From Candidatus Thorarchaeota archaeon (GTDB lineage: Archaea; Asgardarchaeota; Thorarchaeia; Thorarchaeales; Thorarchaeaceae): a stretch of DNA of 22,670 bases. The stretch lies in contig JAEOUG010000104.1 in assembly GCA_016839445.1 (NCBI GenBank), positions 1 to 22,670 of the forward strand, given 5' to 3'. Made by a program: the position numbers and the translations under genes. The notes beneath the pieces were generated by a model. That model did not search any database. It was not told the DNA's origin and worked only from the letters and a program-made list of their open reading frames with translations. Shown here piece after piece: positions 804 through 21,565 of this stretch. The first letter of the stretch is position 1; each line of letters opens with the position of its first letter.

Positions 804-849
804 AGGGTCCCACTCCGTCTTTCAGATGCGCATGTGGTACTATGAGGAA

Positions 850-875: not shown

Positions 876-1044
876 GTGTGCTTGGGCATATTTCCGCCCG
901 TGCTTTCCAAAAAACGATAGGGCAAGACTGCTCTACCCTATGATATGCTGGCACATACAAAGCCTCAAAAGCGCAGTGCCTCCTGTTGGAAATACTGACG
1001 AAGTGAGAGTCATAGTGACCTCTCAGATTGAGGCATGAAGCATC

Positions 1045-5688: not shown

Positions 5689-6277
5689 TGCTGTCCGGCC
5701 TTAGTTCCTGTCGCAGTCTTTCGACAAATGACTCTAGGAATTCATGACGTTCTGCCGCTAACCTCTTTGCTGGCTCAGTATACATCAAATCTCTGAGTTT
5801 CAGAAGCTTCTCGTCCGCATGTTCTAGGAATTCTTGGAGTCCTTGGCCCTCATGTGTAGTGTAGGCTATGCTTCTGTACACGCCGACAGCCCCGATTGCA
5901 TCGAGATTGTCTGCATCGCTCAGGATCTTCCCCTCAATGGATGTGGGCTCCAATCCTTCGCTGAATCTATGGGTTCGAATCACATCTACTACGTGCTGAA
6001 TCTCATCCTGTGAATACTCCTGTTGGGCAAGAACGTCGCGACTCATCTCCCCAGACAGAATCGCATGAGAGATGCCAGTCTCGGCCTCCCTTGATCTCCC
6101 GATATCGTGAAGAATTGCGGCCGCTCGAAGGACTCGGAGGTTCGCTCCTAGTTCGGTTCCTAGCTCCACGCAGATTGCCAGTACCCTCTTGGTGTGGTCA
6201 AGTGCATGGGCTCCTCTCATGAGGTCATCTACTGAGGCCTGCACTAGCTGGAACAGACGCTCCTCTATCGAGTCCAT
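5675..6277 (-). CDS. HD-domain metal-dependent phosphohydrolase (YedJ-like)
   Basis: HALDHTKRV, AAILHDIGR, HA, THRFS, E.KILSDADNLDAIGAVG, KLLKL, TEPAKRLA.ERH. Confidence 0.92.
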   Translation of the reverse strand: MDSIEERLFQLVQASVDDLMRGAHALDHTKRVLAICVELGTELGANLRVLRAAAILHDIGRSREAETGISHAILSGEMSRDVLAQQEYSQDEIQHVVDVIRTHRFSEGLEPTSIEGKILSDADNLDAIGAVGVYRSIAYTTHEGQGLQEFLEHADEKLLKLRDLMYTEPAKRLAAERHEFLESFVERLRQELRPDSTIFH

Positions 6278-6313: not shown

Positions 6314-6346
6314 GGTGTCCTTTCGATATTTAGTCGCTCTCCATCC

Positions 6347-6362
6347 AAGAAACCCTTTAATT
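6347..6362 (+). promoter_or_regulatory. Putative BRE/TATA promoter of the MoxR operon
   Basis: AAGAAACCC-TTTAATT, a purine-rich BRE followed by a TTTA[AT] box, about 70 nt upstream of the giant ORF. Confidence 0.55.
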
Positions 6363-6429: not shown

Positions 6430-9400
6430 TTGGGTGAAAGCGAGGATACTCAGGTGAGCGCATCAGATAGCACTGCCAAACGCAGGATGAGCATTGCCAC
6501 TATAATCAGTACAATCTTCATTACTGCAAGCATCATCTGGGCCGTTGTAGGCTTCGGCTTGATACAGTTCGGGGCAGTTCGGGCTTATCCACCTCACTTC
6601 GAGTATGACACGATCGACTATTGGCCCTACACTCACGATTTCGCTGGCGGCAGAACGAACTGGTTTCAAGATGTGAACTACACTACAGTGCCAGTGAATC
6701 AGACGCTCCCCGATGACTTGATCGACCGGCTGGACGACCCAGTCTTCATAGTGATTCCCAGAGACCCGGCACAGTTGTGGCGAGCAGGCTCGTATGATTA
6801 CTACGATGGGTCCAGCTGGGGAAAGACCACGGTCTCACCCTATGACCTCTCTGTTGAGGAGCTGATACCTGCCGCAGCCGCCCCAAATGAGATCTACGAC
6901 ATCTTCTTCACAGCCACCGCCGGCGCGTCGGTAGGTGAGATGGAGCTTCCCACTATACACCCATCCATTCGGGTCATTCAGGACTCCTTCAGGACTTGGA
7001 GCGTTGTAGACGATACCCTTGTGCTCGATAGTCCATCTCGTTTGCTGAGCTACACATTAAGGACGGACCGTTATGGGACTCTCCTCTTTAGTCCCCTGAT
7101 ACAGGGGACAACTGGCGAAGAGGTCGTCATGAGCTTTGAACTATCATACGAGATTCAGGACCTGGTGAATGTGGAGTCTCATGCTCTGCCAGGCAGTTTC
7201 GCTCCCGGAAGCCTCGCAGTCTACACACAGACCCCCGCTCTGACAACTCGAGTTCTGGACAACATCAGCCAGTTCCAGGATGTTGGTAATGATGCCTACG
7301 AAAAGGCGCTCTCAGTTCAGTTCTACTTCAGGAACACGTTCGATCTTGTCATAGATCCAACTGCCCTTCAGAACCGGCCAGGAACGCAAGAGGTGACTGA
7401 CTGGTTCCTAGAACAAGGACAGGGCCTCCCGCTGGACTTCGCCACCGCATACTGTGTCTTCATGCGCGAACTCGGCGTTCCAGCTCGGCTCGTCAAGGGC
7501 TATGCCATCGGTGAACCTGATCCGATTGAGGACTTCAGGACGATAATGGTCAGGCACATGACCTACTGGGCCGAAGTGTTCATTCCCATGTCTGATGGCA
7601 GTGGCGGCGAATGGATTCAGGTGATTCCTGCCCCTCTCACTCCCGAGTTTGGAGGGTCTGAGGACCCCATCAATTACCCGATACCAGATGTGGAGCTTCT
7701 GGTCTATCCCACCAACGGCTTGTACTACGCTCAGATAGGCAGTCTCTTCGAGATCAGCGCGCAGATATCAGTTGAGGGGTCGAGAATAACCACTCCCGAG
7801 ACCCTCTTCTTCTTTGATGAGACTGATACACAGTACATCGGTTCTGCTTCACTTGGGCAGGCCCCCTTTGAGCCCATAGCAAATGTGAGCTATGTGTTCC
7901 CGTCCAATGCAACTGTTGACTTCCACATCATCTCTGCGACATGGTTTGCGCCCACGCTGCAGGTCACCAATTACACAGCTATCTATGCTGTGGGTCAACC
8001 TGTGCCTTCCTATGATGACTTGCAGGCCGCTCCAGACGATTTCGTTGTCAGCGGCACAACTGACGTCAATGTGAGCCAAGGAATAGACACCTACAAGGCG
8101 TATTGGGAAGACATGGTTCACGTGTACGGGCGCATGACGGTGGGTGGCAACCCAGTCAATGGCTCCAAGTATGGGAACGACCAGATCCGAATTATGTGGG
8201 ACAACACCTTCATGGGAAACGCCACAATCGACGAGTATGGATTCTACTCCTATGACATCTATGTTGATCCCATGGACCACGCATCAATGAGCGTGGGTCC
8301 GCACGAGGTCTGGTCATGGTATCTAGGTGACTTCGACGACGGCATACCACGTCTTCTGCCCGCCAGGTCTCAGGACAACTCAACAGTCACGGTCTGGGGT
8401 CGAGTGGGGTTCGACCTCTATGTGACGCCTAGTCCGGCGTATCCCGGTGCCAATATACACTATGAGGGACGAGTCTATCTCCTGAATGGGTCTCTTTTGC
8501 CCATACCAGATTTCGCTGGTGTCTTCTTCGGTTCTCAGGCGAATTCCACAAGATCACTGAACGTCACTGGCGGCTTCACATGGAACTACGTGATTCCTGT
8601 GACACAGCCCGACGGAACCTACTTCATAAGGGCCAATTGGACATCCAGCTACCCATACATCGTAGGGAACTGGAGCATCGAAGTTCCTCTTGATGTAGGG
8701 GCAGGAGGCTCTGCGCTCACTCTGGATCCTCTCCCGGACCCGATTATCATTGGATGGACTGTAAGGTTTCAGGGCTACCTGACTCATGTTTCAAACGGTT
8801 CAGGAATAGGAGGCCAGTGGATAGACATCTGGTGGGACAACGGGACGCATGTGGTGAATCTGGGCCCCGTACTGACTGCGCCCAATGGCTCGTACTACCT
8901 TGATTATCAAATCCTCTCTCCCTACAAAGGTGATGTAGACTACTGGGCGAACTTCACATCTCCAATACCCGGACTATCCGACTCCGAGTCAATACACCGG
9001 ACAACCACGGTCAAAGGCTATGACGTGGACATAACGATCTTCGCTGATCCTGACCCCGTACTACTGCTGCAGACACTGACCATCCAGGGGACAGTCACGG
9101 TTCCAGAGGCTGGAGGGCTTCCACTCCAGTTCGAGACGGTGACAATATGGATGCAGAATGGCACAGGGGTCTACAATCTCACCAATCGTGTGACAAACTC
9201 CACTGGGGGATACATCTACTACTATACAATCCCAATCTACCAAGACACCGAAGTCATCCACTTCTGGGCGAACTACACATCGCCCTACATCAATGTTGAA
9301 AACGGCGAGTCAATTCACGAGCCGGTCACTGTAGAGGCAACAGGGACTCTCCTGAGTGTGATCTCCGATGACACACACTACTACCTGAACGAGACGGTCA

Positions 9401-12400
9401 TCATCACGGGCAATCTTGCCTTTTCTAACGGCACTCCCCTCCAGGGAGAGACAGTCTACATACACTGGATCAATGCCACCGGGACCTACATCTTTGAGAA
9501 GAAGACCGATGCTCTTGGCAATTACCTCTTCCTCTACAATCTCACGACCAACGATGCCACAGGGACTGTGGACGTTGAGGTATACTTCATCTCTGGTTCA
9601 CCGCTCGTCGAGGATGCCTCGGCCATCCTTTTGCCTTCGCTCACGCTGCAGCTGTACGAGTTAGAGCTTACTATGGTGGTGCCGACGCAGATCTACGTCG
9701 ACGAGAACCTGTTCATTCAGGGGTATCTCAGATATCTTGGTGGCTATCCGCCTCTCCCCGGAGAGGACGTGGAACTCTGGTGGTTTAACGCAACCTCAGG
9801 CTTCTACGAGTATCTCTGGTTCACAACAACGGATAGCTCAGGATGGTTCAACTTCACAGTACCCTTCGTTGGCCCGCAGGAGGGAACGGTCAGTTTCGCC
9901 TGCGTTCACTGGGCTTCAGATCCCCTGAACAACGATGTGGCCGCCTTCTTTGATGTTGACAGGATCCGATACCAGTCCAATCTGGAGATCACCGTGTTTC
10001 CGAATCCAGTCTTGCAGAACGAGACAGTGGCCATCCACGTCTACCTATACATGGATATCAATGGAACCGCTATCGCAAACACGAACGTGAGCTTATACTG
10101 GAACAATGGAACTGTCCGTTTCTTGGGTATTGTGACCACTGACGGGACAGGACATGCGGACTTCTACTACTCTGGAATGGACAATGACACAGTCCGCTCT
10201 GGGATCCAGATCTACGCAGTCTTTCCCGGAACTGCATACCTGGGCCCGAACCAGACCCTTCCACAGACTCTCACGTTAGACCAGTGGCAGACGCAGCTCG
10301 TGGGTGTGAACATACCGCTTGCAGTGTATAGGCTGACCGAGACCGTCGTTGTCACAGGAACGCTTCAATACACACCGTCAGGCATTCCCTACGGTGGAGT
10401 GACCGTTGAACTATGGCATCTGAGTACGTACCTGAACACAACGGTGACCGCTCCTGACGGAACATTCGCTCTCTACTGGACCATCCCCGGAGGGCAGGGC
10501 CTAGGATTCTACGACTTGGAGGTACGTTTCGTCTCTTCGTATCGCTGGATAGCAGACTCGCAGGCACCCGTTCCCCAGTTTGAGATTGTCGCACCTGGCT
10601 ACACCTGGATCTGGTTCTCCGCGACACCGGGAGTTGTCTACCGAACATACTCCCTCAACATCACTGGGATAGTCCAGTGGGACAATGGTACCATCTTTGC
10701 CAATTCACCAGTAGAAATCTATTGGGGCGACTACTTCGGCGCAAGTAGCTATGTTCGCACGGTACTAACGGACTCCAGCGGGCGCTTCAGCATTCTCGAG
10801 CCCATTCCAGGAACCATGCCTCTCGGAGATCTGGACGTCTGGGGCTACATCGCCCCGGCGGGCTTCGCAACTTCAAGTGACTCTCCTGTGGCGACTGTCA
10901 CCGTGGCAGTCTACTCTGTAGTGCTGACTGCAGATGTTAGTGTGGGGACAGCGTATCTCGGTGAGAGTATCACGTTCTTTGGGACTCTTCAGTTCGCTAA
11001 CGGGACTCCCATGGTCGGTTACGAGGTGGAAATCTGGTGGAATGACCTGTTCATTACTTCTCTGACGATTAGTGATCCAGTTAGTGGCGCCTACAGCTAT
11101 GACTATGACATTCTGTATGGCAATGACTTGGGATATATCTCCGGGTACGTCGATTTCGTTGTTCCATCGGCGGCATTCGCTCCTTCTACGGAGATTCTGC
11201 CTGATGTACTTGTCCTCGAGTATGTCACACTGGTTCTGAGTAGCGAGCCCTCTCCTAACGATTTCACGCGGGGTGACATCGTCACGCTTAGTGGCTATGT
11301 TGAGAACGATGTACTCACCAGGGTGTCAGGTGCTACTATCGAGGTCCTCTGGGGCGTATTACCTACTGGAGTCACAGGAGTCACAGAATCTGACGGAACA
11401 TACTCGATTGACTTCACGATTCCTTCCTACTGGCCTCGAGGAACACATACGCTGACCGTCATTGTGGTTTCGCCCTTCCACGACCAGCAGAACACGCCGA
11501 TTGTCTGGACAATTGAGGTTTTCGTCATTTCTGACCTGGACCTGCAGGTGACGCCTGCAGCTATTCTGGCTGGCGAATCAGTCCCAGTGTATGTCGAGCT
11601 CTATGACGGTGATGGAGTCCCGTTACACGACTCCCAGATTCTCATCATGATAGGGACTGCAGTTGTAGGCACCTATCTCCTGTCTGATGCTTCTGGCATG
11701 ATTATTCAGGTGACCGTTCCTGCCTCTTGGAGTGAGGGCGACGGGACGTTCTTGATCAGCGGGGAGTTCACACCAGCGGGCGGTCTCTATATCCGCTCCG
11801 ATTCCGACTCAACTGTCGACTCTATCCATGTCTTCACTGATGTCGTATTCATTCGAAACACACCAAGTAGGATAGACCCCGACCAGGTGTTCTACATAGA
11901 AGTGCAGCTAGAGGATACGGCGGGTAATGCGATAGTTGGCAGGAATGCAGAGATAGTGATCAATGGGACCGTTGTTTCCACTGAGATAACAGATAGTGCA
12001 GGTGCCGTATCCTACAGACTCGATGGGTATCCTTCGGGCACAATAATCACTTATTCTATCACGCTCACATCATCACAGGTCGCAGGAATTTCATCAGATA
12101 CGTTCACAATCCAAATTCAAACACAAGGTGGTAGTCCATTGCAAGGAACAGATTTGCTAATCGCAGGTATTCTACTGGCCGGCGCTATCGTGGCCGTTCT
12201 AGCATACCTATACATCGTCAAAGGCATGTTCCGCACAACTGTGATATCCCGTAGTTCAGTGGATATCCCAACCAAGCTGCGGAACATCAAGAAACTCGCA
12301 GACGCTGGGAAGTATGGTGCATCAATCACGTTGGCGTATCGTACCTTTGAGCAGATGTGCGGTGCCAAGATGGGATCCCAAAGGGTCCATTCAGAGACCG

Positions 12401-12594
12401 CTCGCGAGTACCTTGATCGTGTGCTAGAGGCAATCCCGTTGGATGCTGGCTCTGTAGAAACATTTGTGCAGACATACGAAGAGGCCCGGTTCTCTCATCA
12501 TGAGATGACAAGGGAGCGTTACGAGGAAGCAGTCAGGATATTCACTGACCTCTATCCTCGAATTGACTCGAGTGCACCCGTTGAGAAAGTCTAG
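6430..12594 (+). CDS. Giant membrane-anchored surface protein: N-terminal TM, TgpA-like/transglutaminase-like domain (triad lost), about 14 Ig-like repeats, TM, DUF4129-like C-terminal domain
   Basis: N-terminal hydrophobic helix; LWRAGSYDYYDGSSW (TgpA_N-like); DFATAYCVFMRELGVPARLVKGY...WAEVF...WIQV; repeated beta-rich modules of about 100 aa; TM LLIAGILLAGAIVAVLAYLYIV; AYRTFE...SETAREY...YEEARFS (DUF4129 pattern). Start is TTG 6430 or ATG 6487. Confidence 0.88.
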   Translation: MGESEDTQVSASDSTAKRRMSIATIISTIFITASIIWAVVGFGLIQFGAVRAYPPHFEYDTIDYWPYTHDFAGGRTNWFQDVNYTTVPVNQTLPDDLIDRLDDPVFIVIPRDPAQLWRAGSYDYYDGSSWGKTTVSPYDLSVEELIPAAAAPNEIYDIFFTATAGASVGEMELPTIHPSIRVIQDSFRTWSVVDDTLVLDSPSRLLSYTLRTDRYGTLLFSPLIQGTTGEEVVMSFELSYEIQDLVNVESHALPGSFAPGSLAVYTQTPALTTRVLDNISQFQDVGNDAYEKALSVQFYFRNTFDLVIDPTALQNRPGTQEVTDWFLEQGQGLPLDFATAYCVFMRELGVPARLVKGYAIGEPDPIEDFRTIMVRHMTYWAEVFIPMSDGSGGEWIQVIPAPLTPEFGGSEDPINYPIPDVELLVYPTNGLYYAQIGSLFEISAQISVEGSRITTPETLFFFDETDTQYIGSASLGQAPFEPIANVSYVFPSNATVDFHIISATWFAPTLQVTNYTAIYAVGQPVPSYDDLQAAPDDFVVSGTTDVNVSQGIDTYKAYWEDMVHVYGRMTVGGNPVNGSKYGNDQIRIMWDNTFMGNATIDEYGFYSYDIYVDPMDHASMSVGPHEVWSWYLGDFDDGIPRLLPARSQDNSTVTVWGRVGFDLYVTPSPAYPGANIHYEGRVYLLNGSLLPIPDFAGVFFGSQANSTRSLNVTGGFTWNYVIPVTQPDGTYFIRANWTSSYPYIVGNWSIEVPLDVGAGGSALTLDPLPDPIIIGWTVRFQGYLTHVSNGSGIGGQWIDIWWDNGTHVVNLGPVLTAPNGSYYLDYQILSPYKGDVDYWANFTSPIPGLSDSESIHRTTTVKGYDVDITIFADPDPVLLLQTLTIQGTVTVPEAGGLPLQFETVTIWMQNGTGVYNLTNRVTNSTGGYIYYYTIPIYQDTEVIHFWANYTSPYINVENGESIHEPVTVEATGTLLSVISDDTHYYLNETVIITGNLAFSNGTPLQGETVYIHWINATGTYIFEKKTDALGNYLFLYNLTTNDATGTVDVEVYFISGSPLVEDASAILLPSLTLQLYELELTMVVPTQIYVDENLFIQGYLRYLGGYPPLPGEDVELWWFNATSGFYEYLWFTTTDSSGWFNFTVPFVGPQEGTVSFACVHWASDPLNNDVAAFFDVDRIRYQSNLEITVFPNPVLQNETVAIHVYLYMDINGTAIANTNVSLYWNNGTVRFLGIVTTDGTGHADFYYSGMDNDTVRSGIQIYAVFPGTAYLGPNQTLPQTLTLDQWQTQLVGVNIPLAVYRLTETVVVTGTLQYTPSGIPYGGVTVELWHLSTYLNTTVTAPDGTFALYWTIPGGQGLGFYDLEVRFVSSYRWIADSQAPVPQFEIVAPGYTWIWFSATPGVVYRTYSLNITGIVQWDNGTIFANSPVEIYWGDYFGASSYVRTVLTDSSGRFSILEPIPGTMPLGDLDVWGYIAPAGFATSSDSPVATVTVAVYSVVLTADVSVGTAYLGESITFFGTLQFANGTPMVGYEVEIWWNDLFITSLTISDPVSGAYSYDYDILYGNDLGYISGYVDFVVPSAAFAPSTEILPDVLVLEYVTLVLSSEPSPNDFTRGDIVTLSGYVENDVLTRVSGATIEVLWGVLPTGVTGVTESDGTYSIDFTIPSYWPRGTHTLTVIVVSPFHDQQNTPIVWTIEVFVISDLDLQVTPAAILAGESVPVYVELYDGDGVPLHDSQILIMIGTAVVGTYLLSDASGMIIQVTVPASWSEGDGTFLISGEFTPAGGLYIRSDSDSTVDSIHVFTDVVFIRNTPSRIDPDQVFYIEVQLEDTAGNAIVGRNAEIVINGTVVSTEITDSAGAVSYRLDGYPSGTIITYSITLTSSQVAGISSDTFTIQIQTQGGSPLQGTDLLIAGILLAGAIVAVLAYLYIVKGMFRTTVISRSSVDIPTKLRNIKKLADAGKYGASITLAYRTFEQMCGAKMGSQRVHSETAREYLDRVLEAIPLDAGSVETFVQTYEEARFSHHEMTRERYEEAVRIFTDLYPRIDSSAPVEKV
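7690..12120 (+). repeat. Protein-level tandem array of about 14 diverged Ig-like (Big/macroglobulin-like) domains of about 100-105 aa
   Basis: Recurring pattern L.l...P......GE.v.i.G.L...NG.p..g..V.iwW.NGT.......TD..G.y...y.IP......G...v.a.f, e.g. GNLAFSNGTP, GTLQFANGTP, GIVQWDNGTI, TDSSGRF, TAPDGTF, TESDGTY. No obvious nucleotide-level repeats. Confidence 0.75.
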
Positions 12595-12596
12595 AT

Positions 12597-14000
12597 GTGA
12601 TGCTAATGGGATGGAAGGAAGTCCTGCAAATCATCCTCTTTGTCCTCACCTGGACCCCAGTGGCAGTGCTGGGTTGGTATACGCTCATCGGAGCGGAGCC
12701 CACATACAGTCAGGATTTCTCCATCTACAACGACGAATACAACGGTCTCAGCCAGTTCAGAAGCAGCATTGAGGACAACAGGGACGTCCTCTCTATTCAA
12801 GCCTCAATGAGCGTTGTCTCTCGGTACAACGGCTCTGCAGTGCTTGTCATCATGGGTCCTGTGCGTGATTTCAGTCTCGATGTCACACTCGTCGTGTACA
12901 GCCATCTCTTGGCAGGAGGCGGGGTGTTGATCGCGGACGACTTTGGCACCGCAAACAGCTCATTTGCTGTTCTCAACTACCTCATGACAAGTCTCCTAGG
13001 AGGACAGCTACCTGGCAACATTTCTGGACTCCTATCCTACACAGGCGGCGTGATCTTCGACTTGGATTCGTATGACCCCGCAAAGGAGCCGCGTCTTCCG
13101 ATAATCAGGGACTTCCACAGTGTGTCAGGTCCCGGGGCAATACTCACACAAGGAGTATCTGAGCTTCACTTGAACTATGCTTCGGCAATCAATCCATACT
13201 GCCTGGTGGGCCTGAATGGCTTTGCATGGACTACACCTCGGACTTGGTGTGAGACCGATATCAATGACGATACACCAGCTCCCGACCCGTACGAATGGAA
13301 CGGCAGTCTTCCCGTTGCGGGAGCGCTAGACTTCTCATCTGAGCAGATTCCGAACGGTGGACGTCTCGTAGCGACCAGCGACCCGAGCATATTCATCAAT
13401 GACATGTGGAGAAGGTTCTCCGGCAACAGGCAGTTTGGGGCAAACGTCATTGAGTGGCTGTCAAAAGGAGATACTGAAGTACCTGTCATCTTCTGCGAGG
13501 AGCTTCTGGCAGTGCCTCCCGCATCCAGCGAGTTCTTCTTCGGACTATACCTTGGCCGTGCGCTCTGGCTCTCCTCACTCCCCTATCTCTCCGCACTCTA
13601 TCCTGTCTTCACTGCCGTGGGCATCAAGAAGTACCTGCCCGAGTTGAAGAAGCCGGAGGTCAAGAGCGTTTCAGACGTGTTTCTCCGAAGAGGCCAGACA
13701 TACTTCGGCGAACGGATGACGTACTACAGAACAGAAGGCAACTACACCAGAGTCGTGAAGATGCTGTATCGAAAGCTCAGAAGAGGACTGCGCAAGAAGA
13801 TGCAGTGGACTGACTTCGATCCGCGCAGGGTGTGGGATCTTATGCGTTACAAGGACTCCAAGCTCAGTGAAGCAGAGTTCTACAGGACAATCGACCGGAT
13901 AGAGGAGATTTCCTCCAATCCGAGTATCAGAATCAAGGAGAGCGAAATGATGGAGCTCTTCTTCTTCATGAGGAATATTCAGCGACATTTGGTAGACTAA
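12597..14000 (+). CDS. DUF4350-like membrane-anchored protein (GATase1-like extracellular domain, TM, helical C-terminal domain)
   Basis: N-terminal TM; FSIYNDEYNGLSQF, GGGVLIADDFGTANS, GRLVATSDPSIFINDM, N..F..NVIEWL are DUF4350-type motifs; located in a MoxR operon. Start may be ATG 12600 or 12606. Confidence 0.8.
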   Translation: MMLMGWKEVLQIILFVLTWTPVAVLGWYTLIGAEPTYSQDFSIYNDEYNGLSQFRSSIEDNRDVLSIQASMSVVSRYNGSAVLVIMGPVRDFSLDVTLVVYSHLLAGGGVLIADDFGTANSSFAVLNYLMTSLLGGQLPGNISGLLSYTGGVIFDLDSYDPAKEPRLPIIRDFHSVSGPGAILTQGVSELHLNYASAINPYCLVGLNGFAWTTPRTWCETDINDDTPAPDPYEWNGSLPVAGALDFSSEQIPNGGRLVATSDPSIFINDMWRRFSGNRQFGANVIEWLSKGDTEVPVIFCEELLAVPPASSEFFFGLYLGRALWLSSLPYLSALYPVFTAVGIKKYLPELKKPEVKSVSDVFLRRGQTYFGERMTYYRTEGNYTRVVKMLYRKLRRGLRKKMQWTDFDPRRVWDLMRYKDSKLSEAEFYRTIDRIEEISSNPSIRIKESEMMELFFFMRNIQRHLVD

Positions 14001-14016
14001 TGGAGGTAGAAGATAA

Positions 14017-15006
14017 TTGACCACAGAAGAATCCAATGAAACCCCAATCGTGGACACCACTGCAATGATGACGATTGATGAGGTGAAGAACCTTACAACC
14101 GAGATCATTCAGGAGTGCAACCGGATCATCGTAGGTAAGAACGAGATCCTGTCTAATGTCCTGATAGCTATGCTATCAAACGGGCATGTCATTCTAGAAG
14201 GTGTTCCCGGTCTGGCAAAGACATACATGGCGAGGACCTTTGCGTCAATACTGGGGTGCGCGTTCAAGCGAATCCAGCTCACCGTTGACACACTACCCGC
14301 CGACCTGCTCGGGAGCAATGTCTTCAATCAGAGAACAGGAGAGTTCTGGTTCCGGAAGGGCCCGGTCTTCGCGAATCTCGTTCTAGCTGACGAGATAAAC
14401 CGATGTCCTCCCAAGTCTCAGAGCGCCCTGCTCGAGGTCATGGAAGAGCGACAGGTCTCCATCGAAGGCGTAACTAGGAAGCTTCCGCAACCCTTCCTCA
14501 TCATCTCCACTCAGAACCCGGTGGAGCAGGAGGGTACCTACCCACTGCCCGAGGCGCAGCTTGACAGATTCATGTTCAGGCTCATTCTGGACTACCCGAC
14601 CGGGGATGAAGAGGCCGAGGTTATCCGAAGAAAGCACCTCGGCGAGGCATCAGACCTGAGAGTCCTGGCGGATCCCACAACCATGGTCAAGATGCAGAAC
14701 ACCTGCCGGACCGTGTTCATCGAGGAAGACATAATCAACTACATTCGAGACATCGTCATCCGAACAAGGAACGATCCACAGATTCTCTTGGGAGGTTCAC
14801 CGCGAGCCTCACTGGTCCTGATGAACGCTTCGAAGGCACGGGCTGCCATGCATGGACGGGACTATGTTGTCCCAGAGGATGTACGTCGCCTCTCGGTTCA
14901 GGCTCTCAATCATCGGCTTGTGCTGAAGCCCGAGGCTGAGCTGGAAGGGTTGACGGTTGAGAGAGTTGTCTCGAAGATACTGGGCGAAGTAGACTGTCCC
15001 CACTGA
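14017..15006 (+). CDS. moxR: MoxR-family AAA+ ATPase
   Basis: Walker A GHVILEGVPGLAKT, RIQLT.D.LPAD, GPVFAN, Walker B LADEINR, QSALLEVMEERQVS, TQNPVEQEGTYPLPEAQLDRF, GSPRA, HRL; SD GGAGGT before the TTG. Confidence 0.97.
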   Translation: MTTEESNETPIVDTTAMMTIDEVKNLTTEIIQECNRIIVGKNEILSNVLIAMLSNGHVILEGVPGLAKTYMARTFASILGCAFKRIQLTVDTLPADLLGSNVFNQRTGEFWFRKGPVFANLVLADEINRCPPKSQSALLEVMEERQVSIEGVTRKLPQPFLIISTQNPVEQEGTYPLPEAQLDRFMFRLILDYPTGDEEAEVIRRKHLGEASDLRVLADPTTMVKMQNTCRTVFIEEDIINYIRDIVIRTRNDPQILLGGSPRASLVLMNASKARAAMHGRDYVVPEDVRRLSVQALNHRLVLKPEAELEGLTVERVVSKILGEVDCPH

Positions 15007-15039
15007 GCGTGAGAACCTAGTTACTGGAGAAGACGCAAA

Positions 15040-16362
15040 GTGATTACGCAGAGAGGCTTTGTGGTGGTGTTTGCGGGAGTCCTCCTACTGACAAGTGGAT
15101 TCTCTTTCATCAACTTCTACCTCGTGCTTCTTGGTGTGTACCTAGTCATTGGACTCGTCGTTACACTGCCTCTCTTTGCAGTCACAGCCAATCTTGCAGG
15201 CATCGAAGTCGACAGACAGATCGACAAGGTGAAGGTCTTCTCGGGTGACTTCCTGCGTGTCAGGGTGACCATACGAAATGCCTCTCGAAGACACTTCGAT
15301 TTCATCGAAGTTCATGATCAATACCCGGAAACATGGATTCTGGCCATAGGTGAGAACTTCATCGCGTCGAGGATTGAGCCAGGCAGCAGCATCACGTTCT
15401 CCTACATACTCCAAGCCCGAATGCGGGGGCGATACTACCTGGGACCCACTGAGGTCGTCATGCGTGATCGCCTTGGTCTGCACTACTACAAGCGTACCCT
15501 CAAGGAGCAGACCGAAGTCCTGGTGTATCCTACTTGGAAAGATGTCCGAAGGATGGAGGCGCTCGGGAAGCAGCGACAGCTGGGCCTCATGTTCGGTGCC
15601 CACAGAACCAAGACGGTTGGAATGGGTGCGGACTTCGCTGGGTTCCGAGACTACGTCCCCGGCGATGAATTCAGGCTCATAGACTGGAAGACCAGCGCCA
15701 AACGTGGAGACATGGTGATTAAGCAGTTCGAGATGGAGAAGAATGTCAGCGTAGTCTGCATGGTAGACACAAGTGGTAGCATGGGAAACGGTTACCCGGA
15801 GAACACGAAACTCGAATATGCCATCAGAGCTGCTGTGCTCCTAACTCACCTTGGACTTGAGAGAAAGGACCTTGTTGGTACCTGTGTGTTCAGTGACATG
15901 GTCCACGGGTTCGTTCCTCCACAGACCACCATGAATCACATGTACGACGTCCTTGAGGTCCTCGCAGCTGCTGAACCTGGCGGCTGGAGCGACTACGAGA
16001 CCGCTATCTCGCATGTTGTGGAGAAGGTCAAGAAACGCTCGCTCGTCATCTGGATGACGGACCTTGAAGAGAGTCCCGCACCGCTTCTGAATGCAATGAA
16101 GACGCTTGTTGCCAATGGCCACAAAGCCATGGTGATCAGCCCGTTCGGGCCTTGGTTCGAGGCACCAGTGGGCCAGTTTGGTCCTGTGGAGAAGGTGCTC
16201 GCTGAGGCTGTGTCTGAAGAGCTCTGGGAACGAAGAAGGAAGATTGCCAGGGCACTCGCCAGATTCGGCATCTCGGTTGTTAACGTGGGGCCGGAGGACT
16301 TCCTCCCCACCATCATAAAGACCTACGAACAGGCAAAGCAGAGGGGGGTGGCCATGTTTTGA
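15040..16362 (+). CDS. DUF58-domain / vWA protein with N-terminal TM helices
   Basis: RGRY.LGP, VLVYP, FAGFRDYVPGDEFRLIDWKTSAK, KQFE.E, MIDAS DTSGSM, KLEYA, D.VG, TDL. Confidence 0.95.
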   Translation: MITQRGFVVVFAGVLLLTSGFSFINFYLVLLGVYLVIGLVVTLPLFAVTANLAGIEVDRQIDKVKVFSGDFLRVRVTIRNASRRHFDFIEVHDQYPETWILAIGENFIASRIEPGSSITFSYILQARMRGRYYLGPTEVVMRDRLGLHYYKRTLKEQTEVLVYPTWKDVRRMEALGKQRQLGLMFGAHRTKTVGMGADFAGFRDYVPGDEFRLIDWKTSAKRGDMVIKQFEMEKNVSVVCMVDTSGSMGNGYPENTKLEYAIRAAVLLTHLGLERKDLVGTCVFSDMVHGFVPPQTTMNHMYDVLEVLAAAEPGGWSDYETAISHVVEKVKKRSLVIWMTDLEESPAPLLNAMKTLVANGHKAMVISPFGPWFEAPVGQFGPVEKVLAEAVSEELWERRRKIARALARFGISVVNVGPEDFLPTIIKTYEQAKQRGVAMF

Positions 16363-17753
16363 GAGCAGTCACTTGGCTTCTCCGCATTGTCGCCACTGTA
16401 CTCTTCATCATAATGGCGTACTTGATCTACTATAGCTTGGATGTCAATGACATATGGCATTGGGACGCCCCCTATGCCTTTGTGGTCACGGTGTTCAGGC
16501 TCCTCTCACTTCTCGTCTTCTTCATGATTACGAATATGATAGGTGGTCTTGCTAGCGTCTTCACAGGTGGTGTTGTGCCAGATGACCTTGTAATAGGCCT
16601 TTACAACACAGTGGTCCTAAGATCGTGGTATATGCAGCCCTACGGTGTAGAAGGTCCTCTGACCAATCTCACTGATGTCTGGGCCTCGTTCGGCGCGAAC
16701 TTCAGCAGTGTACTTGGCGACCTCTGGACCAATACCTTCCTATTCCTCTACTTCCTTCTTGCCGGTGTCGGAATTGCTCTCTTTTTCCAAGCAATCACGA
16801 AGATGGACCACAAGTACGTTGGTGGATCCTTCATCTCCCTGCAGTCCATAATCATAATCGCGGCGTTCCGCACCCTCATCGTACCGGATCTGAACCCCTT
16901 CCCCACCGACTTCTTGGCCTTCTTGGCAAGCAATGCACAGATTCTGGCCCTTGTTTCCTTCGCCTTCCTTGAGGTGAGCTATCAGATGATCTATAGTCAC
17001 TCCGTTGGGAAGCCCGTTGAAGACAGAGAGGAAACCCTAAAGAAACAGCTCTTGGCATTGAGACAGGCCACAAGAAAGCAAGATGCCATAGAGAGAGGTG
17101 ACAAGGTCCGAACCACCGGAATGAGCCGAACCGCGGGTGCAACTGCATTCAGTTTCCTTCGCGAAGCGATAGAGCGCAAGGTCGTGGGCACCAAGGATGC
17201 GCTCGAGAATCTTGACGCCATCTCTGATGTGCGGCGGCTTCAGATATTCGTAGATGACCTGCTTCACACTGACTCGCGAGCCAAGGACGAACTCACGGCC
17301 AAGGCCGCATCTCCCTCCTCCGGATACGTCATCGGTTCCATGCTCATTGGCTCAGTGATTCGGTTCCTGAGTGTCGTTACGGTCACGTTTATTCTAATGA
17401 GTCCCGGCGTTCTCAGTGTACTACTCGACTTGCCTATTGGTATTCTCGATAGCGTTGAGATTCTTCAACCAGAGATTGTCCTAGTCCTTCTTGTTCCCGT
17501 TGCTCTTCTCTTCCCCTTTGCCGCGATGGTGATCAGCTGGCTATCACAGCGAGAGGTTGAAGACAAGCCTAAGCTGACAAAGGAAGAGAAAGAGGCTGAG
17601 AAGGCCCGTAAGAGGGAAATCGACCGCAAGAGAAGGGAAGCTGCAAGGGCTCGACGTGAGCGTGCCAAGGCCCGCAGGAAGCGAAGATTCGTTGATGAGT
17701 CCGAAAAGGACGAGTGGGATAAGGCTCTTGAGGAGACGTACGGAAGTTCATAG
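16359..17753 (+). CDS. Hypothetical polytopic membrane protein with highly charged C-terminal tail
   Basis: 464-aa ORF overlapping the DUF58 stop (TTGA) with SD GGGGGTGG; about 7 hydrophobic segments, a soluble helical region of about 100 aa and a K/R/E-rich tail; no family recognised. Confidence 0.8.
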   Translation: MRAVTWLLRIVATVLFIIMAYLIYYSLDVNDIWHWDAPYAFVVTVFRLLSLLVFFMITNMIGGLASVFTGGVVPDDLVIGLYNTVVLRSWYMQPYGVEGPLTNLTDVWASFGANFSSVLGDLWTNTFLFLYFLLAGVGIALFFQAITKMDHKYVGGSFISLQSIIIIAAFRTLIVPDLNPFPTDFLAFLASNAQILALVSFAFLEVSYQMIYSHSVGKPVEDREETLKKQLLALRQATRKQDAIERGDKVRTTGMSRTAGATAFSFLREAIERKVVGTKDALENLDAISDVRRLQIFVDDLLHTDSRAKDELTAKAASPSSGYVIGSMLIGSVIRFLSVVTVTFILMSPGVLSVLLDLPIGILDSVEILQPEIVLVLLVPVALLFPFAAMVISWLSQREVEDKPKLTKEEKEAEKARKREIDRKRREAARARRERAKARRKRRFVDESEKDEWDKALEETYGSS

Positions 17754-18739
17754 TGGGTCGATTCCTGATGGCAGACAAAGTAGTCCTTAGCCATGGTGAT
17801 CTTGACGGAATCACGTCTGGAGCGATTGCACTGCTCAAGTATCCTGGATCTGAATTCTACTTCACACGTCCCTCTCAGGTCCACCAGGACCTGTTCCGTG
17901 TGGCCAAGGACAGACCACGTCTCGTTCACATCAGTGACATTGCGATTAACGAACGACGCTTTGACGACCTCCTCCTAGCGCTCGATCGCTTTCCTGAATC
18001 CACTGACATCCTCTGGACAGACCATCATCCTATGAGCAAGGAACACCGCAAGCAGCTTGAGCGACGGGTCGACCTATTTCACGAGTCTGGTCCCTGTGCC
18101 GCAGAACTGGTCTATAGGAAGTTCGAGCAGGATCTCCCAGAGCATGCGGTGCGGCTGGCCTTGTACGGGGCCATCGGTGACTACTGCGACGATACGCCCT
18201 TTGCCCGACTCCACTTCGACGATATCGACAAGCGAACGCTGTACCTTGAGGCAGGCCTCCTAGTACAAGCACTGCAGGAGATTGACTACCGCAGTGAGTC
18301 GAAGGACTTGGTGCATCAGCTCACGCTGGGGATAAAGCCGAGCTCAATGAACGATATTGTGGACCTCGCGATGAAAGCCACAAGAATCGAGCATGAGGTG
18401 TTCAGGTACGTCCAGAGCAACGCCAAGAAGACGGGTGTAGTTGGCTACATACTCGACATGCCGGTAAATGGATACCGTGGTAAGAGCGCGAAGTTCTCCG
18501 CCTATGTTACCAATTCAAAGATTGGAATCAGTGCTAGGTCATCAGAAGATGAGGTGGACATGAGCATAAGGAGGCGAAGAACCGATCTGGACCTGAACCG
18601 CGCACTAAACGACATTCTAGTCAGCTTCGACGGCGCCTCTGGGGGCGGCCACCCTGCGGCCGCAGGTGCAAGCCTGAACAGGGATGATTTTCCCAAGTTC
18701 CTCCAGACGTTCTCAGACTACGTTAAGAATGGCGATTAG
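17753..18739 (+). CDS. DHH/DHHA1-family phosphoesterase (RecJ/NrnA-like)
   Basis: SHGDLDG, ISDI, TDHH, AIGDYCD, MSIR, SGGGHPAAAG. Start is GTG 17753 or ATG 17768. Confidence 0.92.
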   Translation: MGRFLMADKVVLSHGDLDGITSGAIALLKYPGSEFYFTRPSQVHQDLFRVAKDRPRLVHISDIAINERRFDDLLLALDRFPESTDILWTDHHPMSKEHRKQLERRVDLFHESGPCAAELVYRKFEQDLPEHAVRLALYGAIGDYCDDTPFARLHFDDIDKRTLYLEAGLLVQALQEIDYRSESKDLVHQLTLGIKPSSMNDIVDLAMKATRIEHEVFRYVQSNAKKTGVVGYILDMPVNGYRGKSAKFSAYVTNSKIGISARSSEDEVDMSIRRRRTDLDLNRALNDILVSFDGASGGGHPAAAGASLNRDDFPKFLQTFSDYVKNGD

Positions 18740-21030
18740 AATGCTGTGAAGAACGCATCAAGCATGACCCATGCCACTGTGACAACGGCCTCCCCTGCGA
18801 CCACGCCGCTGAGAATGCGACTTGTCCTATCGTAGCTCATTTCATAGATCCTTGTCTGAGTGGGCCTGTCTTCTGGCGCACACGGCGCAATGTCGATGTA
18901 GTCAAGACGCTTCTTCATTCTGTAGTCGATGGCTCCCCCGACGAGCATGGCGACCGCTGTTGCAGGAGGGATAAGTATCCCCACGACAAGGCTCATCGGG
19001 CTCATCCCTCTCTTGCTGAGCTCGCGTCCTGCCACGAAGCCAAAGATCGCATAGCTGAGAAGATACGAGAAGGCAATGATGGGGCTCACATCGCCGAACT
19101 GGTCTAGACCAGGGAGCCGAAACTCGCCAAGCCCCTCTAGGCTCGTGACCAAGAATCCAAAAAGCTGCGCCGCTGGGCTGGGAAAGTCAGAGCCGCCGAA
19201 ACCGTAGGTCAGGAATATCAAGTAGGTGATCGCCGACCCGACGAAGGTTCCTAACATCACCCCGACGAATACACCCTTAGCAATGTCACGCCCCCTCACC
19301 TTTGTCAGGCGTCCTAGCTTCAGATGAACGAGGAGCGCAATTGCTGAGTCTTGTACTGCACCCAGCATTGACACGAATGTGGTTATGACTGAGAAGCCCA
19401 CTCTGAAGAAGAGCACTGCAGGGATTGCCACAATATCCGAAATGTACCCCGCCAGCATTCCTGTTTCGCTGATGGCTCTTGCCGTGAAATACGCTGAAAC
19501 CAGTGCAAGGGGAGATCCTAGGATTATCAGAAGCCAATGAATCTGGAGCCCAGCAAAGGGTCGAATGAACCAGAAGACGATGATGTTCACTATCATGAAC
19601 AGAACCATTGAGAGTACTGCTACCCACGGAGGAATCTGTCCTCGTCTGCTCTGAAGGTACTCTCTCGGGTTCTCTATCATGGCCCGGATTTCTTCCTTGA
19701 GGGTCTGGATAGAGAACATCTCTTCTCGCACGCGCAGAAGCCTCGACAGCTCACTGCTCTTTGGAGGACATTCTGTTTCGACACCATCATCTGTGGCTAT
19801 CTCTCCCATGGGGACCTCCACATCTTCCCCATCTTCTCCAGATGGGGCCTCCTCTTTCTGCCGGCCTGTCAGAACATCACCTGCGATAATGGTCACGAAC
19901 ACGCCCAGCGCCAGATAGAGGATCTCGGCTCTCTGCAGATGTTCACCGAAGGCAATGGCGCTGTTGGCTCCCTCCAATACTATCCAGACAAACAGCGACA
20001 GCACACTACCTGCAGCTATGACCAGCGTTCTCCGCCACCCTACGAAGAAACCAATACCTGCAATCATCGGGGAGTTGTTTACACCCACCCAGTCGGGTAT
20101 CGCTCCCGCGGCAGGGACCACGCCCTCGAGGACGTTGGGGAAGGATGAGAAGGGTGACCCAGTGTAGTAATTGGAAAGTGGTTGTGACACACCCATCCAC
20201 CCTGCAGCTGCCGCAAGACCTATTCCGACAGTCTTCTTGGCCTGGGCGTCACCTCCGATGGAGTTGATACATCGAGCCTGCGGCTGTATTTGAGGCCACG
20301 CCTCATTCTCGAATCGATCCCGCATGGGCGCGAGGAGTAACATGCCGAATACTGCAGCAACGATGGTTACATAGACGATGAACTCGTAGGTGATTAACGG
20401 AGGGACGGTAGATGTTCCGTAGGCTGTTACTGGGTCATTGATTACTATTGCAGGGAAGACGATGAGAACGCCGACTGCAATCATTGCTGAGCTGTTGGCG
20501 ATTGTCACAACAATCGTGTTCTCTTGAGATGTATATCTCCCACCCACGCTGAGGAATATCGCTCCCAGCATCTCTGCGCCCACCAAGAACACGACTCCCA
20601 GCTTCAGTGCTAGGTAGATTGCCATGAAGGTCATAATGATGCCGACGACTATACCAGTTCCCAGCGCTCGCTTTGTCACAGGGTACTTGGGTTCGCTCAG
20701 CAGCGCGGCGTAGAGAGCGACACCTCCGATTGCCATGACGACGACATGTGAGAGGACACCGAAGAACCAGGCCAGGATGAGTAGCGCAAGAGCACCGCTT
20801 CCCAAGATGGCGAGATCCTTCTTGTTCGGCGGGCGTCCGAAGAGTGAGAGATACAGGAGACCTGCTTCAGCAATCACTGCAATAATGGCTCCTGGCCTGA
20901 ACCAATGCCCCTCGGTGAGCCAGAGTACGGCATAGAAGAGGCCCGCGGCGAAGAGACCACATGCAAGCGCCCTCGTCGGGTCTGAGAACAGGCCTCTCAA
21001 GTACTGCCGCATGGGGCGCAAGACTCGCAA
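18736..21030 (-). CDS. OPT/YSL-family oligopeptide transporter with N-terminal extension
   Basis: TKRAL..GIVVG...YLALKLG, ENTIVVTIANS, GIGFFVG, ETG, PSPAAQLF, SGVVAGEA and many TM helices. Start is TTG 21030 or ATG 21012. Confidence 0.82.
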   Translation of the reverse strand: MRVLRPMRQYLRGLFSDPTRALACGLFAAGLFYAVLWLTEGHWFRPGAIIAVIAEAGLLYLSLFGRPPNKKDLAILGSGALALLILAWFFGVLSHVVVMAIGGVALYAALLSEPKYPVTKRALGTGIVVGIIMTFMAIYLALKLGVVFLVGAEMLGAIFLSVGGRYTSQENTIVVTIANSSAMIAVGVLIVFPAIVINDPVTAYGTSTVPPLITYEFIVYVTIVAAVFGMLLLAPMRDRFENEAWPQIQPQARCINSIGGDAQAKKTVGIGLAAAAGWMGVSQPLSNYYTGSPFSSFPNVLEGVVPAAGAIPDWVGVNNSPMIAGIGFFVGWRRTLVIAAGSVLSLFVWIVLEGANSAIAFGEHLQRAEILYLALGVFVTIIAGDVLTGRQKEEAPSGEDGEDVEVPMGEIATDDGVETECPPKSSELSRLLRVREEMFSIQTLKEEIRAMIENPREYLQSRRGQIPPWVAVLSMVLFMIVNIIVFWFIRPFAGLQIHWLLIILGSPLALVSAYFTARAISETGMLAGYISDIVAIPAVLFFRVGFSVITTFVSMLGAVQDSAIALLVHLKLGRLTKVRGRDIAKGVFVGVMLGTFVGSAITYLIFLTYGFGGSDFPSPAAQLFGFLVTSLEGLGEFRLPGLDQFGDVSPIIAFSYLLSYAIFGFVAGRELSKRGMSPMSLVVGILIPPATAVAMLVGGAIDYRMKKRLDYIDIAPCAPEDRPTQTRIYEMSYDRTSRILSGVVAGEAVVTVAWVMLDAFFTAF

Positions 21031-21431: not shown

Positions 21432-21565
21432 GCTCTCTACTCCCCCTCCAATGCATATGAAGGTGTCCGGACCTCAATATGACGGAAGGGCTGTCTAGGA
21501 TTTCTTTATTTGGGGAGGCTTCTGGTGACATCGTAAGACCGTACCTTCAACGGGGCGAATTCACG

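Follow-up and report, generated by a model that had tools for sequence, protein, structure and literature searches.

A Thorarchaeal gene cluster as a form of a widespread predicted MoxR-DUF58-DUF4350 envelope module of Asgard archaea

An archaeal gene neighborhood combining DUF4350, MoxR, immunoglobulin (Ig)-vWA, Ig-like surface, and multi-transmembrane (multi-TM) proteins was described before Asgard genomes became available and was predicted to encode a secretion or membrane-remodeling complex (Makarova, Galperin and Koonin, 2015; PMC5898192). Here we analyze a cluster of co-directional genes at positions 6430..18739 on the forward strand of a contig from a Candidatus Thorarchaeota archaeon (JAEOUG010000104.1, assembly GCA_016839445.1); the contig, taken over its full length of 22,670 nucleotides (nt), is referred to as the window. 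The core gene set is common to this cluster and to the arCOG01314/DUF4350 neighborhood, and both are computational predictions. The 2015 study lists neither a transglutaminase-like nor a DUF4129 protein (the word "transglutaminase" occurs in it 0 times), and its "5 TM" proteins (arCOG07126/arCOG11232) can be set beside the fifth product of our cluster by description only. A reading of the window made from the sequence alone (hereafter, the sequence-only reading) had proposed an undescribed system; in view of the earlier prediction, the cluster is instead the Thorarchaeal form of a widespread, predicted envelope module without tested function. The literature searched on DUF4129, MoxR-DUF58, and Asgard MoxR yielded no description of the Asgard form of the cluster, and we know of no homolog of the module in any organism with an established mechanism.

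In agreement with the sequence-only reading, the listing of open reading frames (ORFs) shows six genes in one direction, separated by gaps of 2, 16, and 33 nt and then by overlaps of 4 and 1 nt. The window proteins are numbered g1 to g6 from 5' to 3'; family labels (f1-f27) and locus labels (L followed by a number) denote the sampled relatives.

6430..12594, + strand: g1, 2054 aa, bitopic giant and predicted glycoprotein
12597..14000, + strand: g2, 467 aa, DUF4350 membrane protein (arCOG01314-type, GldG/GIFT-like)
14017..15006, + strand: g3, 329 aa, MoxR-type AAA+ ATPase (AAA_3 and AAA_lid_2)
15040..16362, + strand: g4, 440 aa, DUF58/vWA protein
16359..17753, + strand: g5, 464 aa, all-helical polytopic membrane protein of an unnamed family
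17753..18739, + strand: g6, 328 aa, short DHH/DHHA1 phosphoesterase

Two bacterial operons also invite comparison. In Pseudomonas aeruginosa, PA2875, PA2874, and tgpA are co-transcribed, and TgpA is an active and essential periplasmic transglutaminase (Milani et al., 2012; PMC3507681). The N-terminal head of g1 shares the fold of the TgpA periplasmic domain, and the transglutaminase domain of TgpA faces outward from the membrane. The catalytic Cys-His-Asp triad is intact in the active, essential TgpA, whereas g1 has Pro, Thr, and Ile at these positions and, compared with TgpA, adds approximately 12 β-sandwich repeats and a heavy load of glycosylation sequons. Further, the Asgard cluster adds the genes for DUF4350 and g5, and its gene order differs. 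We take the two genes upstream of tgpA to encode a MoxR ATPase and a DUF58 protein, although the paper does not use these names. The PFNA cluster of Bifidobacterium comprises pkb2, fn3, aaa-atp/MoxR, duf58, and tgm, and its MoxR was proposed to be a chaperone of the surface protein (PMC8430577). Its likeness to the Asgard cluster lies in the combination, within one operon, of a membrane-anchored β-sandwich (FN3) surface glycoprotein, MoxR, DUF58, and a transglutaminase-like membrane protein. In PFNA, however, the Ig-like protein and the transglutaminase are encoded by separate genes and a Ser/Thr kinase belongs to the core, whereas g1 fuses both; its description mentions no DUF4350 or g5-type protein, and the cluster is described from one bacterial genus and interpreted as host sensing.

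The MoxR-vWA pairs RavA-ViaA, CbbQ-CbbO, NorQ-NorD, and BchI-BchD mature or remodel soluble or respiratory enzymes. The Asgard cluster has the same arrangement of an AAA_3/AAA_5-type ring gene beside the gene for a vWA protein with an intact metal ion-dependent adhesion site (MIDAS). The difference is that here the adaptor would be tethered to the membrane, and the candidate clients are the predicted cytoplasmic tails of surface proteins.

The conserved unit of this module is five genes (giant, DUF4350, MoxR, DUF58, and g5) and not six. The first sample of loci covered up to 20 kb around g5 homologs at 16 loci from 16 genomes and 12 families; these loci were compared by tblastn with the six window proteins, and 86 ORFs from 11 of them with Pfam. 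The MoxR and DUF58 genes adjoin the g5 homolog at all 16 loci, and DUF4350 is encoded at 15 of them (L025 being without it). A transglutaminase-like and/or DUF4129 protein is encoded at 14 loci; of the other two, L015 starts at a contig edge and L025 has none. The order giant, DUF4350, MoxR, DUF58, g5 holds at every locus of the first sample except L025, while the flanks change between families (chaperonin, F420 genes, tRNA synthetase, glycosyltransferases, and others). Synteny across Asgard archaea, which the sequence-only reading had named as a check of its proposal, was therefore observed as the recurrence of one five-gene order between differing flanks. The second sample, consisting of the best 80 of 356 DUF4350 relatives in a species-level collection, keeps the order g1-g2-g3-g4-g5 wherever the DNA reaches.

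The gene for g5 is the core fifth gene of the Asgard module, and not an extra, as its product, an unknown membrane protein, had been regarded in the sequence-only reading. A match to g5 alone is found in 37 of the 41 related genomes. Among Asgard genomes at least 80% complete, the g5 profile matches 233 of 251 (85 of the 89 high-quality genomes and 56 of the 62 genera), nearly always in one copy, and the gene adjoins DUF58 wherever examined. In the phylum-wide draw, the profile has no match in families f10 (0/1), f13 (0/3), f17 (0/2), and f27 (0/1). The DUF4350-like matches of families f13 and f17 have glycoside hydrolases as neighbors, and no MoxR or DUF58 was seen close by. In f27 (L111 1240-8392, genome G230), genes for a transglutaminase/Ig protein (1512 aa), DUF4350, and MoxR are followed by an unrelated MCH cyclohydrolase gene, and the whole genome, which is 93% complete, yielded neither DUF58 nor g5. 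Since the module is absent or shortened in the families that lack g5, this gene comes and goes with the module, once together with DUF58. The module is among the most conserved envelope gene clusters of Asgard archaea.

The g5 protein has no match among the Pfam, NCBIfam, and PADLOC models. Hydropathy analysis indicates several hydrophobic segments, and the AlphaFold2 (AF2) model is all-helical (predicted local distance difference test, pLDDT, 86.7; predicted template modeling score, pTM, 0.78). Together with the charge distribution and two sequons (N103 and N114), this model suggests a layout with the N-terminus outside, seven TM segments, a cytoplasmic helical domain at about residues 215-320, and a basic C-terminal helix. 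The positions conserved in alignments of 15 and 73 sequences are E205 and Y212 (in a YLE.S.Q..Y motif), R223, L294, R335, S365, E367, P371, and E372; a short conserved S-x-E...P-E segment precedes the last TM segment.

17580-17741, + strand: basic C-terminal helix of g5, residues 408-461, K/R-rich

Among the aligned sequences, the two orthologs from the same genus (L026 and L028) have this basic helix, and most of the other Asgard families have a shorter one or none, L025 being an exception; the helix occurs with or without g6.

Fold searches with the whole 464-residue model of g5 found no relative: the best Foldseek match in the PDB has an E-value of 0.66, and the best match of a wide VIA-align search has a Z of 8.1, within the background for helical models. 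The Atlas matches are unnamed archaeal clusters at 0.85 and 0.83 (Promethearchaeota) and 0.75 (Thermoplasmatota), all below the lead level of 0.9. When the g5 profile was compared by HMMER with 1.84 billion protein representatives, 128 proteins or clusters were retrieved at E-values up to 0.001. The ten weakest full-length clusters were looked up, and the three that carry names are all Njordarchaeales-type or depositor-labeled Korarchaeota. The second search, made with the 73-sequence alignment, had only Thorarchaeal sequences among the matches listed (the best 120 of 276) and did not sharpen the family boundary. As far as the 128 matches and the ten weak clusters among them reach, the g5 family thus seems to be confined to Asgard-labeled (or depositor-labeled Korarchaeota) records.

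The sixth gene has a different distribution. The sequence-only reading had treated the DHH enzyme as an added component; it is an add-on indeed, but one confined to Thorarchaeia and often lost there. After 17 of the 80 loci of the second sample were dropped (11 end before g5, 2 cut g5, and 4 have less than 1050 bp downstream), a full-length g6 was found directly 3' of g5 at 35 of the 59 Thorarchaeal loci, a partial one at 4, and none at 20, while g6 is absent from all four non-Thorarchaeal Asgard loci with enough downstream DNA. These counts are descriptive, as the two samples overlap and the genomes are related to one another. The distance from g5 does not exceed 41 nt for 34 of the 35 full copies and is 268 nt in L100; in L093 g6 overlaps g5 by 4 nt. 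At the loci of the first sample g6 is not found beside the cluster (0/16), and the resulting view of g6 as a mere local neighbor was ruled out by the 80-locus sample. Among the 41 related genomes, a full g6 lies beside g5 in the window genome and in 6 of its 24 congeners, and fragments lie beside g5 in 3 more; the sister family has a g6 homolog with 45% identity on another contig. In the window, an OPT transporter gene overlaps g6 by 4 nt, whereas in the sister family, which has no g6 at this place, it overlaps g5 directly (L013 15311-17101, - strand); therefore, g6 sits exactly at the g5/OPT junction.

Matching of g6 to Pfam gave DHHA1 at 37.9 bits (cut-off 25.9) and DHH at 22 bits, below the cut-off of 28.1. 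The motifs H14-x-D16-x-D18, D62, D90-H91-H92, and GGGH are intact, and the latter two align to archaeal RecJ. The nearest solved relatives are the archaeal RecJ/GAN nucleases 5x4h and 5ghr (E 1.3e-5), than which g6 is 140-170 residues shorter (328 vs 464-500 aa). Its assignment as a full RecJ/GAN nuclease was rejected, since the RecJ_archaeal model gives 56.4 bits against a cut-off of 360 and the GAN model 23.8 against 850. Orthologs of g6 are approximately 322 aa long and bear generic names only. We read g6 as a small phosphoesterase that would have been added to the operon in Thorarchaeia, where it is dispensable and frequently lost; where present, it is probably co-transcribed with the cluster.

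The most variable member of the unit is g1, which is composed of the following parts.

6487..6579, + strand: N-terminal TM anchor, residues 20-50, with KRR just before it (hydropathy)
6580..7839, + strand: TgpA-like head, residues ~51-470 (Pfam, phmmer, AF2, Foldseek)
7288-7623, + strand: Transglut_core match within the head, residues 287-398
8317..12129, + strand: stalk of CarboxypepD_reg/Big_1-like β-sandwich repeats, residues ~630-1900
12136..12231, + strand: C-terminal TM helix, residues 1903-1934, with a K/R-rich stretch just after it (hydropathy)
12232..12591, + strand: predicted cytoplasmic DUF4129 tail, residues 1935-2054, the last 120 residues

Two Pfam families are matched above their cut-offs, Transglut_core at 47.6 bits (cut-off 23) and, right after the C-terminal TM helix, DUF4129 at 48.5 bits (cut-off 24.8; residues 1969-2036). 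The β-sandwich families CarboxypepD_reg, Big_1, MG2, TTR-52, and Dioxygenase_C give sub-threshold matches; in the same stalk region of the sister-family ortholog (L013), CarboxypepD_reg and Big_1 reach 106 and 72 bits, respectively. A search of tiles of g1 against itself resolved the region between residues ~630 and ~1900 into 10 to 14 (approximately 12) diverged repeats of about 105 aa each. The protein has 40 N-x-S/T sequons against 12.6 expected from its composition, all of them at residues 83-1845, between the two TM segments, and most of them in the stalk repeats. No comparable excess is seen in g3 (3 vs 1.7 expected), g4 (2 vs 1.1), or g6 (0 vs 1.0). The confinement of the sequons between the TM segments, along with the lack of an excess in these three proteins, argues for g1 being an N-in, C-in bitopic glycoprotein with an ectodomain of 1,850 residues, probably among the largest glycosylated surface proteins of Asgard archaea.

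The sequence-only reading had called the transglutaminase dead, and the structural comparison agrees. The PDB sequence closest to residues 1-557 of g1 is 6g49, the TgpA periplasmic domain from P. aeruginosa (phmmer E 0.005), and in this alignment the catalytic Cys of TgpA pairs with Pro334 and the His with Thr378. The Asp position, identified in an alignment of 13 sequences (the window head and 12 orthologs), is Ile. An AF2 model computed for residues 51-560 from 45 sequences has a pLDDT of 83.6 and a pTM of 0.79, and its top Foldseek match is again 6g49 (E 2.7e-13; TM-score 0.66 normalized on the target; 328 columns with 17% identity), followed by animal transglutaminases and protein 4.2 (7uzs, E 1.2e-5, rank 5). 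TgpA_N matches were found in the orthologs L014 and L020. The head thus has a TgpA-like fold with all three catalytic residues lost in this genus, i.e., it is a pseudo-enzyme, and it is most likely structural or ligand-binding here rather than catalytic. Erythrocyte protein 4.2, of the ankyrin complex, has the transglutaminase fold without the catalytic activity and works as a structural scaffold. It offers a precedent for the pseudo-enzyme reading by analogy only, since it belongs to the eukaryotic cytoskeleton and is linked to this operon neither by evolution nor by context.

The catalytic state of the head varies over Asgard families. In the order Cys, His, Asp, the three columns read Pro, Thr or Gln, and Ile in the window and three relatives of the same genus; Asp, His, and Glu in the sister family (L013); Gly, His, and Asp in f12 (L014); Ser, His, and Asp in f3, f6, and f8 (L021, L023, L020, and L024); Cys, His, and Asp in f7 (L016 and L019); and Ala, Phe, and Gln in L022. 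The heads of some other Asgard lineages may, as judged from these residues, still be catalytic. The f7 orthologs (L016 10113-13976 and L019 8942-13654, both on the - strand) have two Transglut_core stretches per protein (136.8 bits), with at least one Cys-His-Asp intact.

The fusion of a transglutaminase, an Ig stalk, and DUF4129 had been singled out by the sequence-only reading as unusual. Instead, a transglutaminase-like head, β-sandwich repeats, a TM segment, and DUF4129 in one chain turn out to be the normal Asgard architecture. The length of the giant varies between 1168 and 2122 aa among orthologs. In L022 it is split into one protein with the transglutaminase and another with DUF4129; in L016 it appears as two ORFs of 1287 and 482 aa overlapping by approximately 290 nt, for which a frameshift or a faulty assembly may be responsible. 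In family f4 (L017 8965-9396 and L018 5500-5931), the giant is replaced by a 143-aa protein composed of a TM helix and DUF4129 (43 bits), after which DUF4350, MoxR, DUF58, and g5 follow. This minimal form suggests that the conserved partner in the module is the tail, and that the remaining genes need the DUF4129 tail rather than the ectodomain. Within the tail, Arg1992 and Tyr2042 are invariant and E2017-x-A-R-F-S is near-invariant in an alignment of 40 sequences.

Membrane anchoring of four products, claimed from the sequence alone, is consistent with the hydrophobic segments of g1, g2, g4, and g5. In g2, DUF4350 remains below threshold (20.2 bits vs a Pfam cut-off of 30.4), as does ABC_transp_aux, whereas g2 orthologs reach 33-70 bits for DUF4350; the syntenic orthologs with 23-36% identity to g2 score 38-70 bits, and the DUF4350 orthologs also match ABC_transp_aux and IFT52_GIFT. 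An N-terminal hydrophobic segment was located by hydropathy at residues 7-31. With the C-terminal hydrophobic segment taken from orthologs, the layout is an N-terminal anchor, an ectodomain, this segment, and a basic helical tail predicted to be cytoplasmic. The NCBIfam models name none of g2, g4, and g5.

The ATPase g3 matches AAA_3 at 207.4 bits (cut-off 27) and AAA_lid_2 at 81.9 bits (cut-off 22.7) in Pfam and is without a hydrophobic segment. Its Walker A (GVPGLAKT) and Walker B (LLADEINR) motifs, read from the translation, are intact, as is the MIDAS of g4; both had been reported by the sequence-only reading. For g4, Pfam gives DUF58 at 117.8 bits (cut-off 23.4) and VWA_2 at 41.6 bits (cut-off 27); a search of DUF58 against PDB sequences gave no match.

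15766-15780, + strand: MIDAS of g4, D243-T-S-G-S247 (DTSGS), from translation and alignment

In 40 orthologs, D243 and D341 are invariant and S245 and S247 are conserved at 90% or more. The N-terminus of g4 has a conserved hydrophobic stretch of 53 residues (residues 5-57), long enough for a hairpin, and a BatD/DUF11-like β-sandwich lies between this stretch and the vWA domain. A hairpin would leave the β-sandwich and the vWA domain in the cytoplasm, beside MoxR.

In general, a MoxR ring engages acidic residues of its target by way of a vWA/MIDAS adaptor, as established for CbbQ-CbbO, RavA-ViaA, NorQ-NorD, and Rea1. Because of this general behavior of MoxR-vWA pairs, we propose an ATP-driven adaptor that acts on the tails of surface proteins. 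A soluble MoxR AAA+ ring would reside in the cytoplasm and would be tethered to the membrane by DUF58 through its N-terminal hairpin, the vWA/MIDAS domain serving as the adaptor. The adaptor would grip the membrane-proximal cytoplasmic helical tails of the two bitopic surface proteins, that of g1 through DUF4129 and that of g2 through its weakly DUF4129-like counterpart, with g5 as a putative membrane scaffold. ATP hydrolysis would then assemble or remodel an extracellular complex of the GldG-like DUF4350 domain and the N-glycosylated g1 stalk, in which the TgpA-like head might be structural or ligand-binding; g6 would be a dispensable accessory of one lineage. The topologies, the contacts between partners, and the action of the ATPase are all inferred, and we give the model as a whole roughly an even chance of being correct.

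The contact at the center of the model was examined by complex prediction with DUF58 residues 55-440 and the g1 tail, each supplied as an alignment of 40 rows. The pair scored 0.43 (runs 0.44, 0.43, and 0.14), and the best of three controls scored 0.01; at least 88% of contacts are shared between the runs, with partner pLDDT of at least 75. In calibration, 116 of 157 solved complexes attain the mark, as do 2 of 215 mismatched pairs; with a score of 0.60 or under it is attained by only 18 of the 157 solved complexes and by both mismatched pairs that pass. The sequence-only reading had suggested both a MoxR-vWA machine acting on DUF4129-like tails and such a prediction as a check. The general idea of coupling a MoxR-vWA pair in the cytoplasm to membrane proteins with extensive ectodomains and DUF4129-type cytoplasmic tails holds, while the predicted DUF58-tail contact gives weak support and the likeness of the g2 tail is weak as well.

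Several observations weigh against the proposed mechanism. The score of the DUF58 contact with the DUF4129 tail is weak by the calibration of the tool itself, and the prediction returned no interface; therefore, the conserved Glu cannot be said to reach the MIDAS site. The second predicted tail is doubtful on two counts: the C-terminal TM segment of g2 falls below the hydropathy threshold in the window protein and was found in 8 of 13 orthologs (8 of the 14 proteins examined), and between the tail profile built from these 8 of 14 proteins, whose last TM segment was detected, and the g1 DUF4129 tail, hhalign finds a weak similarity (probability 59%, E 9.2e-5, 90 columns). If the hydrophobic stretch of g4 is a single signal-anchor rather than a hairpin, cytoplasmic MoxR cannot reach the vWA domain and the model fails; the 2015 study does place the Ig-vWA protein outside the cell, whereas a cytoplasmic vWA domain is proposed here (PMC5898192). 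The scaffold role of g5, a protein without a recognizable fold relative, is a guess, and its conserved intramembrane Glu and Arg could equally be compatible with transport. Finally, the counts for the 16 and the 80 loci are not independent, as the loci were found via g5 or g2 and many of the genomes are related.

Of the alternatives, the one that fares best is a secretion system, in which the DUF4350, Ig-like, Ig-vWA, and multi-TM proteins would form a conduit or platform for the export or display of large proteins, with MoxR assembling or regulating it. The similarity of DUF4350 to GldG and the mostly membrane or extracellular nature of the components, noted in the 2015 study (PMC5898192), speak for it, as do the matches of DUF4350 orthologs to ABC_transp_aux and IFT52_GIFT and the polytopic g5 with charged residues E205, R335, E367, and E372 in or near the membrane. 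However, no candidate cargo gene is conserved beside the cluster, the flanks differing in every family; g5 has no recognizable channel or translocase fold (Foldseek and VIA-align values given above); and g1, which ranges from 143 to 2122 aa, is the most variable part and looks like payload rather than machinery. We consider this explanation rather unlikely.

Somewhat lower we rank an outside-in receptor, whose g1 and g2 ectodomains would sense a ligand, a partner-cell surface, or the state of the envelope and signal through the DUF4129 tails to MoxR-DUF58, with DHH adding a nucleotide-linked output in Thorarchaeia. A pseudo-enzyme head that keeps the TgpA-like fold could bind a ligand, g6 keeps all of its DHH and GGGH motifs, and PFNA has been discussed as an operon for sensing host signals, with an FN3 protein that binds TNF-alpha (PMC8430577). 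Nevertheless, the functional claims for PFNA are themselves largely inferential; no kinase, transcription factor, or other signaling output is conserved in the Asgard clusters, and g6 is missing or decayed at 24 of the 59 Thorarchaeal loci and absent from all four other Asgard loci. We therefore hold a receptor to be improbable.

The proposed action of MoxR-DUF58 on the tails could also be carried further, to an Asgard-wide "inside-out" machine resembling integrin activation: MoxR-vWA would grip the DUF4129 tails and, via g5, switch the conformation, clustering, or release of the g1 stalk, while the pseudo-transglutaminase head would bind partner cells or substrates and, in Thorarchaeia, DHH would provide control by a nucleotide (nanoRNA or cyclic dinucleotide). 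We regard this extension as a long shot, and the tensioning or release of an adhesin, with a role in partner contact, as pure inference.

A catalytic modifier of the envelope, with g1 as a transglutaminase or protease that acts on surface proteins and is matured by MoxR-DUF58, is very improbable. In its favor, TgpA is essential and its periplasmic domain acts as a transglutaminase (PMC3507681), and the Cys-His-Asp of f7 and the Ser-His-Asp of f3, f6, and f8 leave room for catalysis that is perhaps ancestral and perhaps persists elsewhere in Asgard archaea; however, all three positions are replaced in the window and in three orthologs of the same genus, for which the sequence already refutes this explanation, and the f4 variant lacks any ectodomain. 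Least probable of all is a MoxR-vWA conflict or antiviral system. Pairs of this kind do occur in predicted conflict systems, and g3 matches the Pfam model bpMoxR ("MoxR-vWA-beta-propeller ternary systems"; 48 bits) and, weakly, PADLOC IetA (E 7.6e-4, 17 bits). A defense system was rejected on the PADLOC result and the phyletic pattern: none of the six proteins has any other PADLOC match, the cluster is near-universal in the phylum, syntenic, and mostly present in one copy, and its neighbors are housekeeping genes (PAC2, RsmB, PALP, and tRNA synthetase), unlike those of defense islands.

The boundaries of the cluster are marked by the following upstream elements and flanking genes.

5675-6277, - strand: HD-domain gene, divergent, upstream of the cluster
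about 6321-6330: second upstream box TTTCGATAAA (TTTCGAT-A), conserved in most of the 18 aligned upstream regions
6354..6362, + strand: TATA-like box CCTTTAATT, ~68 nt 5' of the g1 start (upstream alignment)
18736-21030, - strand: OPT transporter gene, convergent, downstream of the cluster

The upstream alignment comprised the window, where the spacer is 152 nt long, and 17 loci whose g1 N-terminus has an identity of at least 50%. The CCTTTAATT box is kept in all 18 regions while the surrounding spacer diverges; it fits an archaeal TATA element, and the promoter-like element that the sequence-only reading had placed before the cluster is thereby retained as a putative promoter. Scans for sigma-70 promoters (12 sites vs 8.4 +/- 3.2 in shuffled sequences) and terminators (9 vs 8.1 +/- 3.1) were at chance level, both models being not applicable to archaea.

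In this genus, three genes of phosphohydrolase type stand at the two sides of the cluster, CYTH (5101-5688, + strand) and HD (5675-6277, - strand) upstream and DHH (17753-18739, + strand) downstream; ORFs of a size similar to the CYTH and HD genes also lie upstream at the same-genus loci. Three Asgard families have a PAC2 (proteasome assembly chaperone-like) gene no more than a few kb from the cluster (window 1045-1785, + strand; L021 4516-5283; L024 12669-13496), and two have a PALP enzyme gene similarly close (window 3770-5032; L014 13381-14652); these recurring neighbors look like residual ancient synteny of a housekeeping region. Elsewhere in the window, the ORF at 21479-21952 (+ strand, 157 aa) has a sub-threshold Profilin match (E 8.7e-4, 19.8 bits vs a cut-off of 25) and is a candidate Asgard profilin, in keeping with the Asgard origin of the DNA; the ORFs at 3-803 (- strand), 790-1176 (- strand), and 22037-22411 (+ strand), of 267, 128, and 124 aa, are without a Pfam match.

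What is new in comparison with the described systems is, first, the five-gene conserved unit with g5, an Asgard-labeled membrane subunit without a detectable fold relative. Second, the catalytic state of the head varies over families, from Cys-His-Asp through Ser-His-Asp to fully eroded. Third, the minimal form composed of a TM segment and DUF4129 would mark the cytoplasmic tail as the conserved handle of the module, and the DHH gene appears dispensable in Thorarchaeia. Asgard surfaces and cell-cell contacts are central to ideas on the origin of eukaryotes, and therefore a conserved system that would couple ATP hydrolysis to surface proteins is a sensible target for study.

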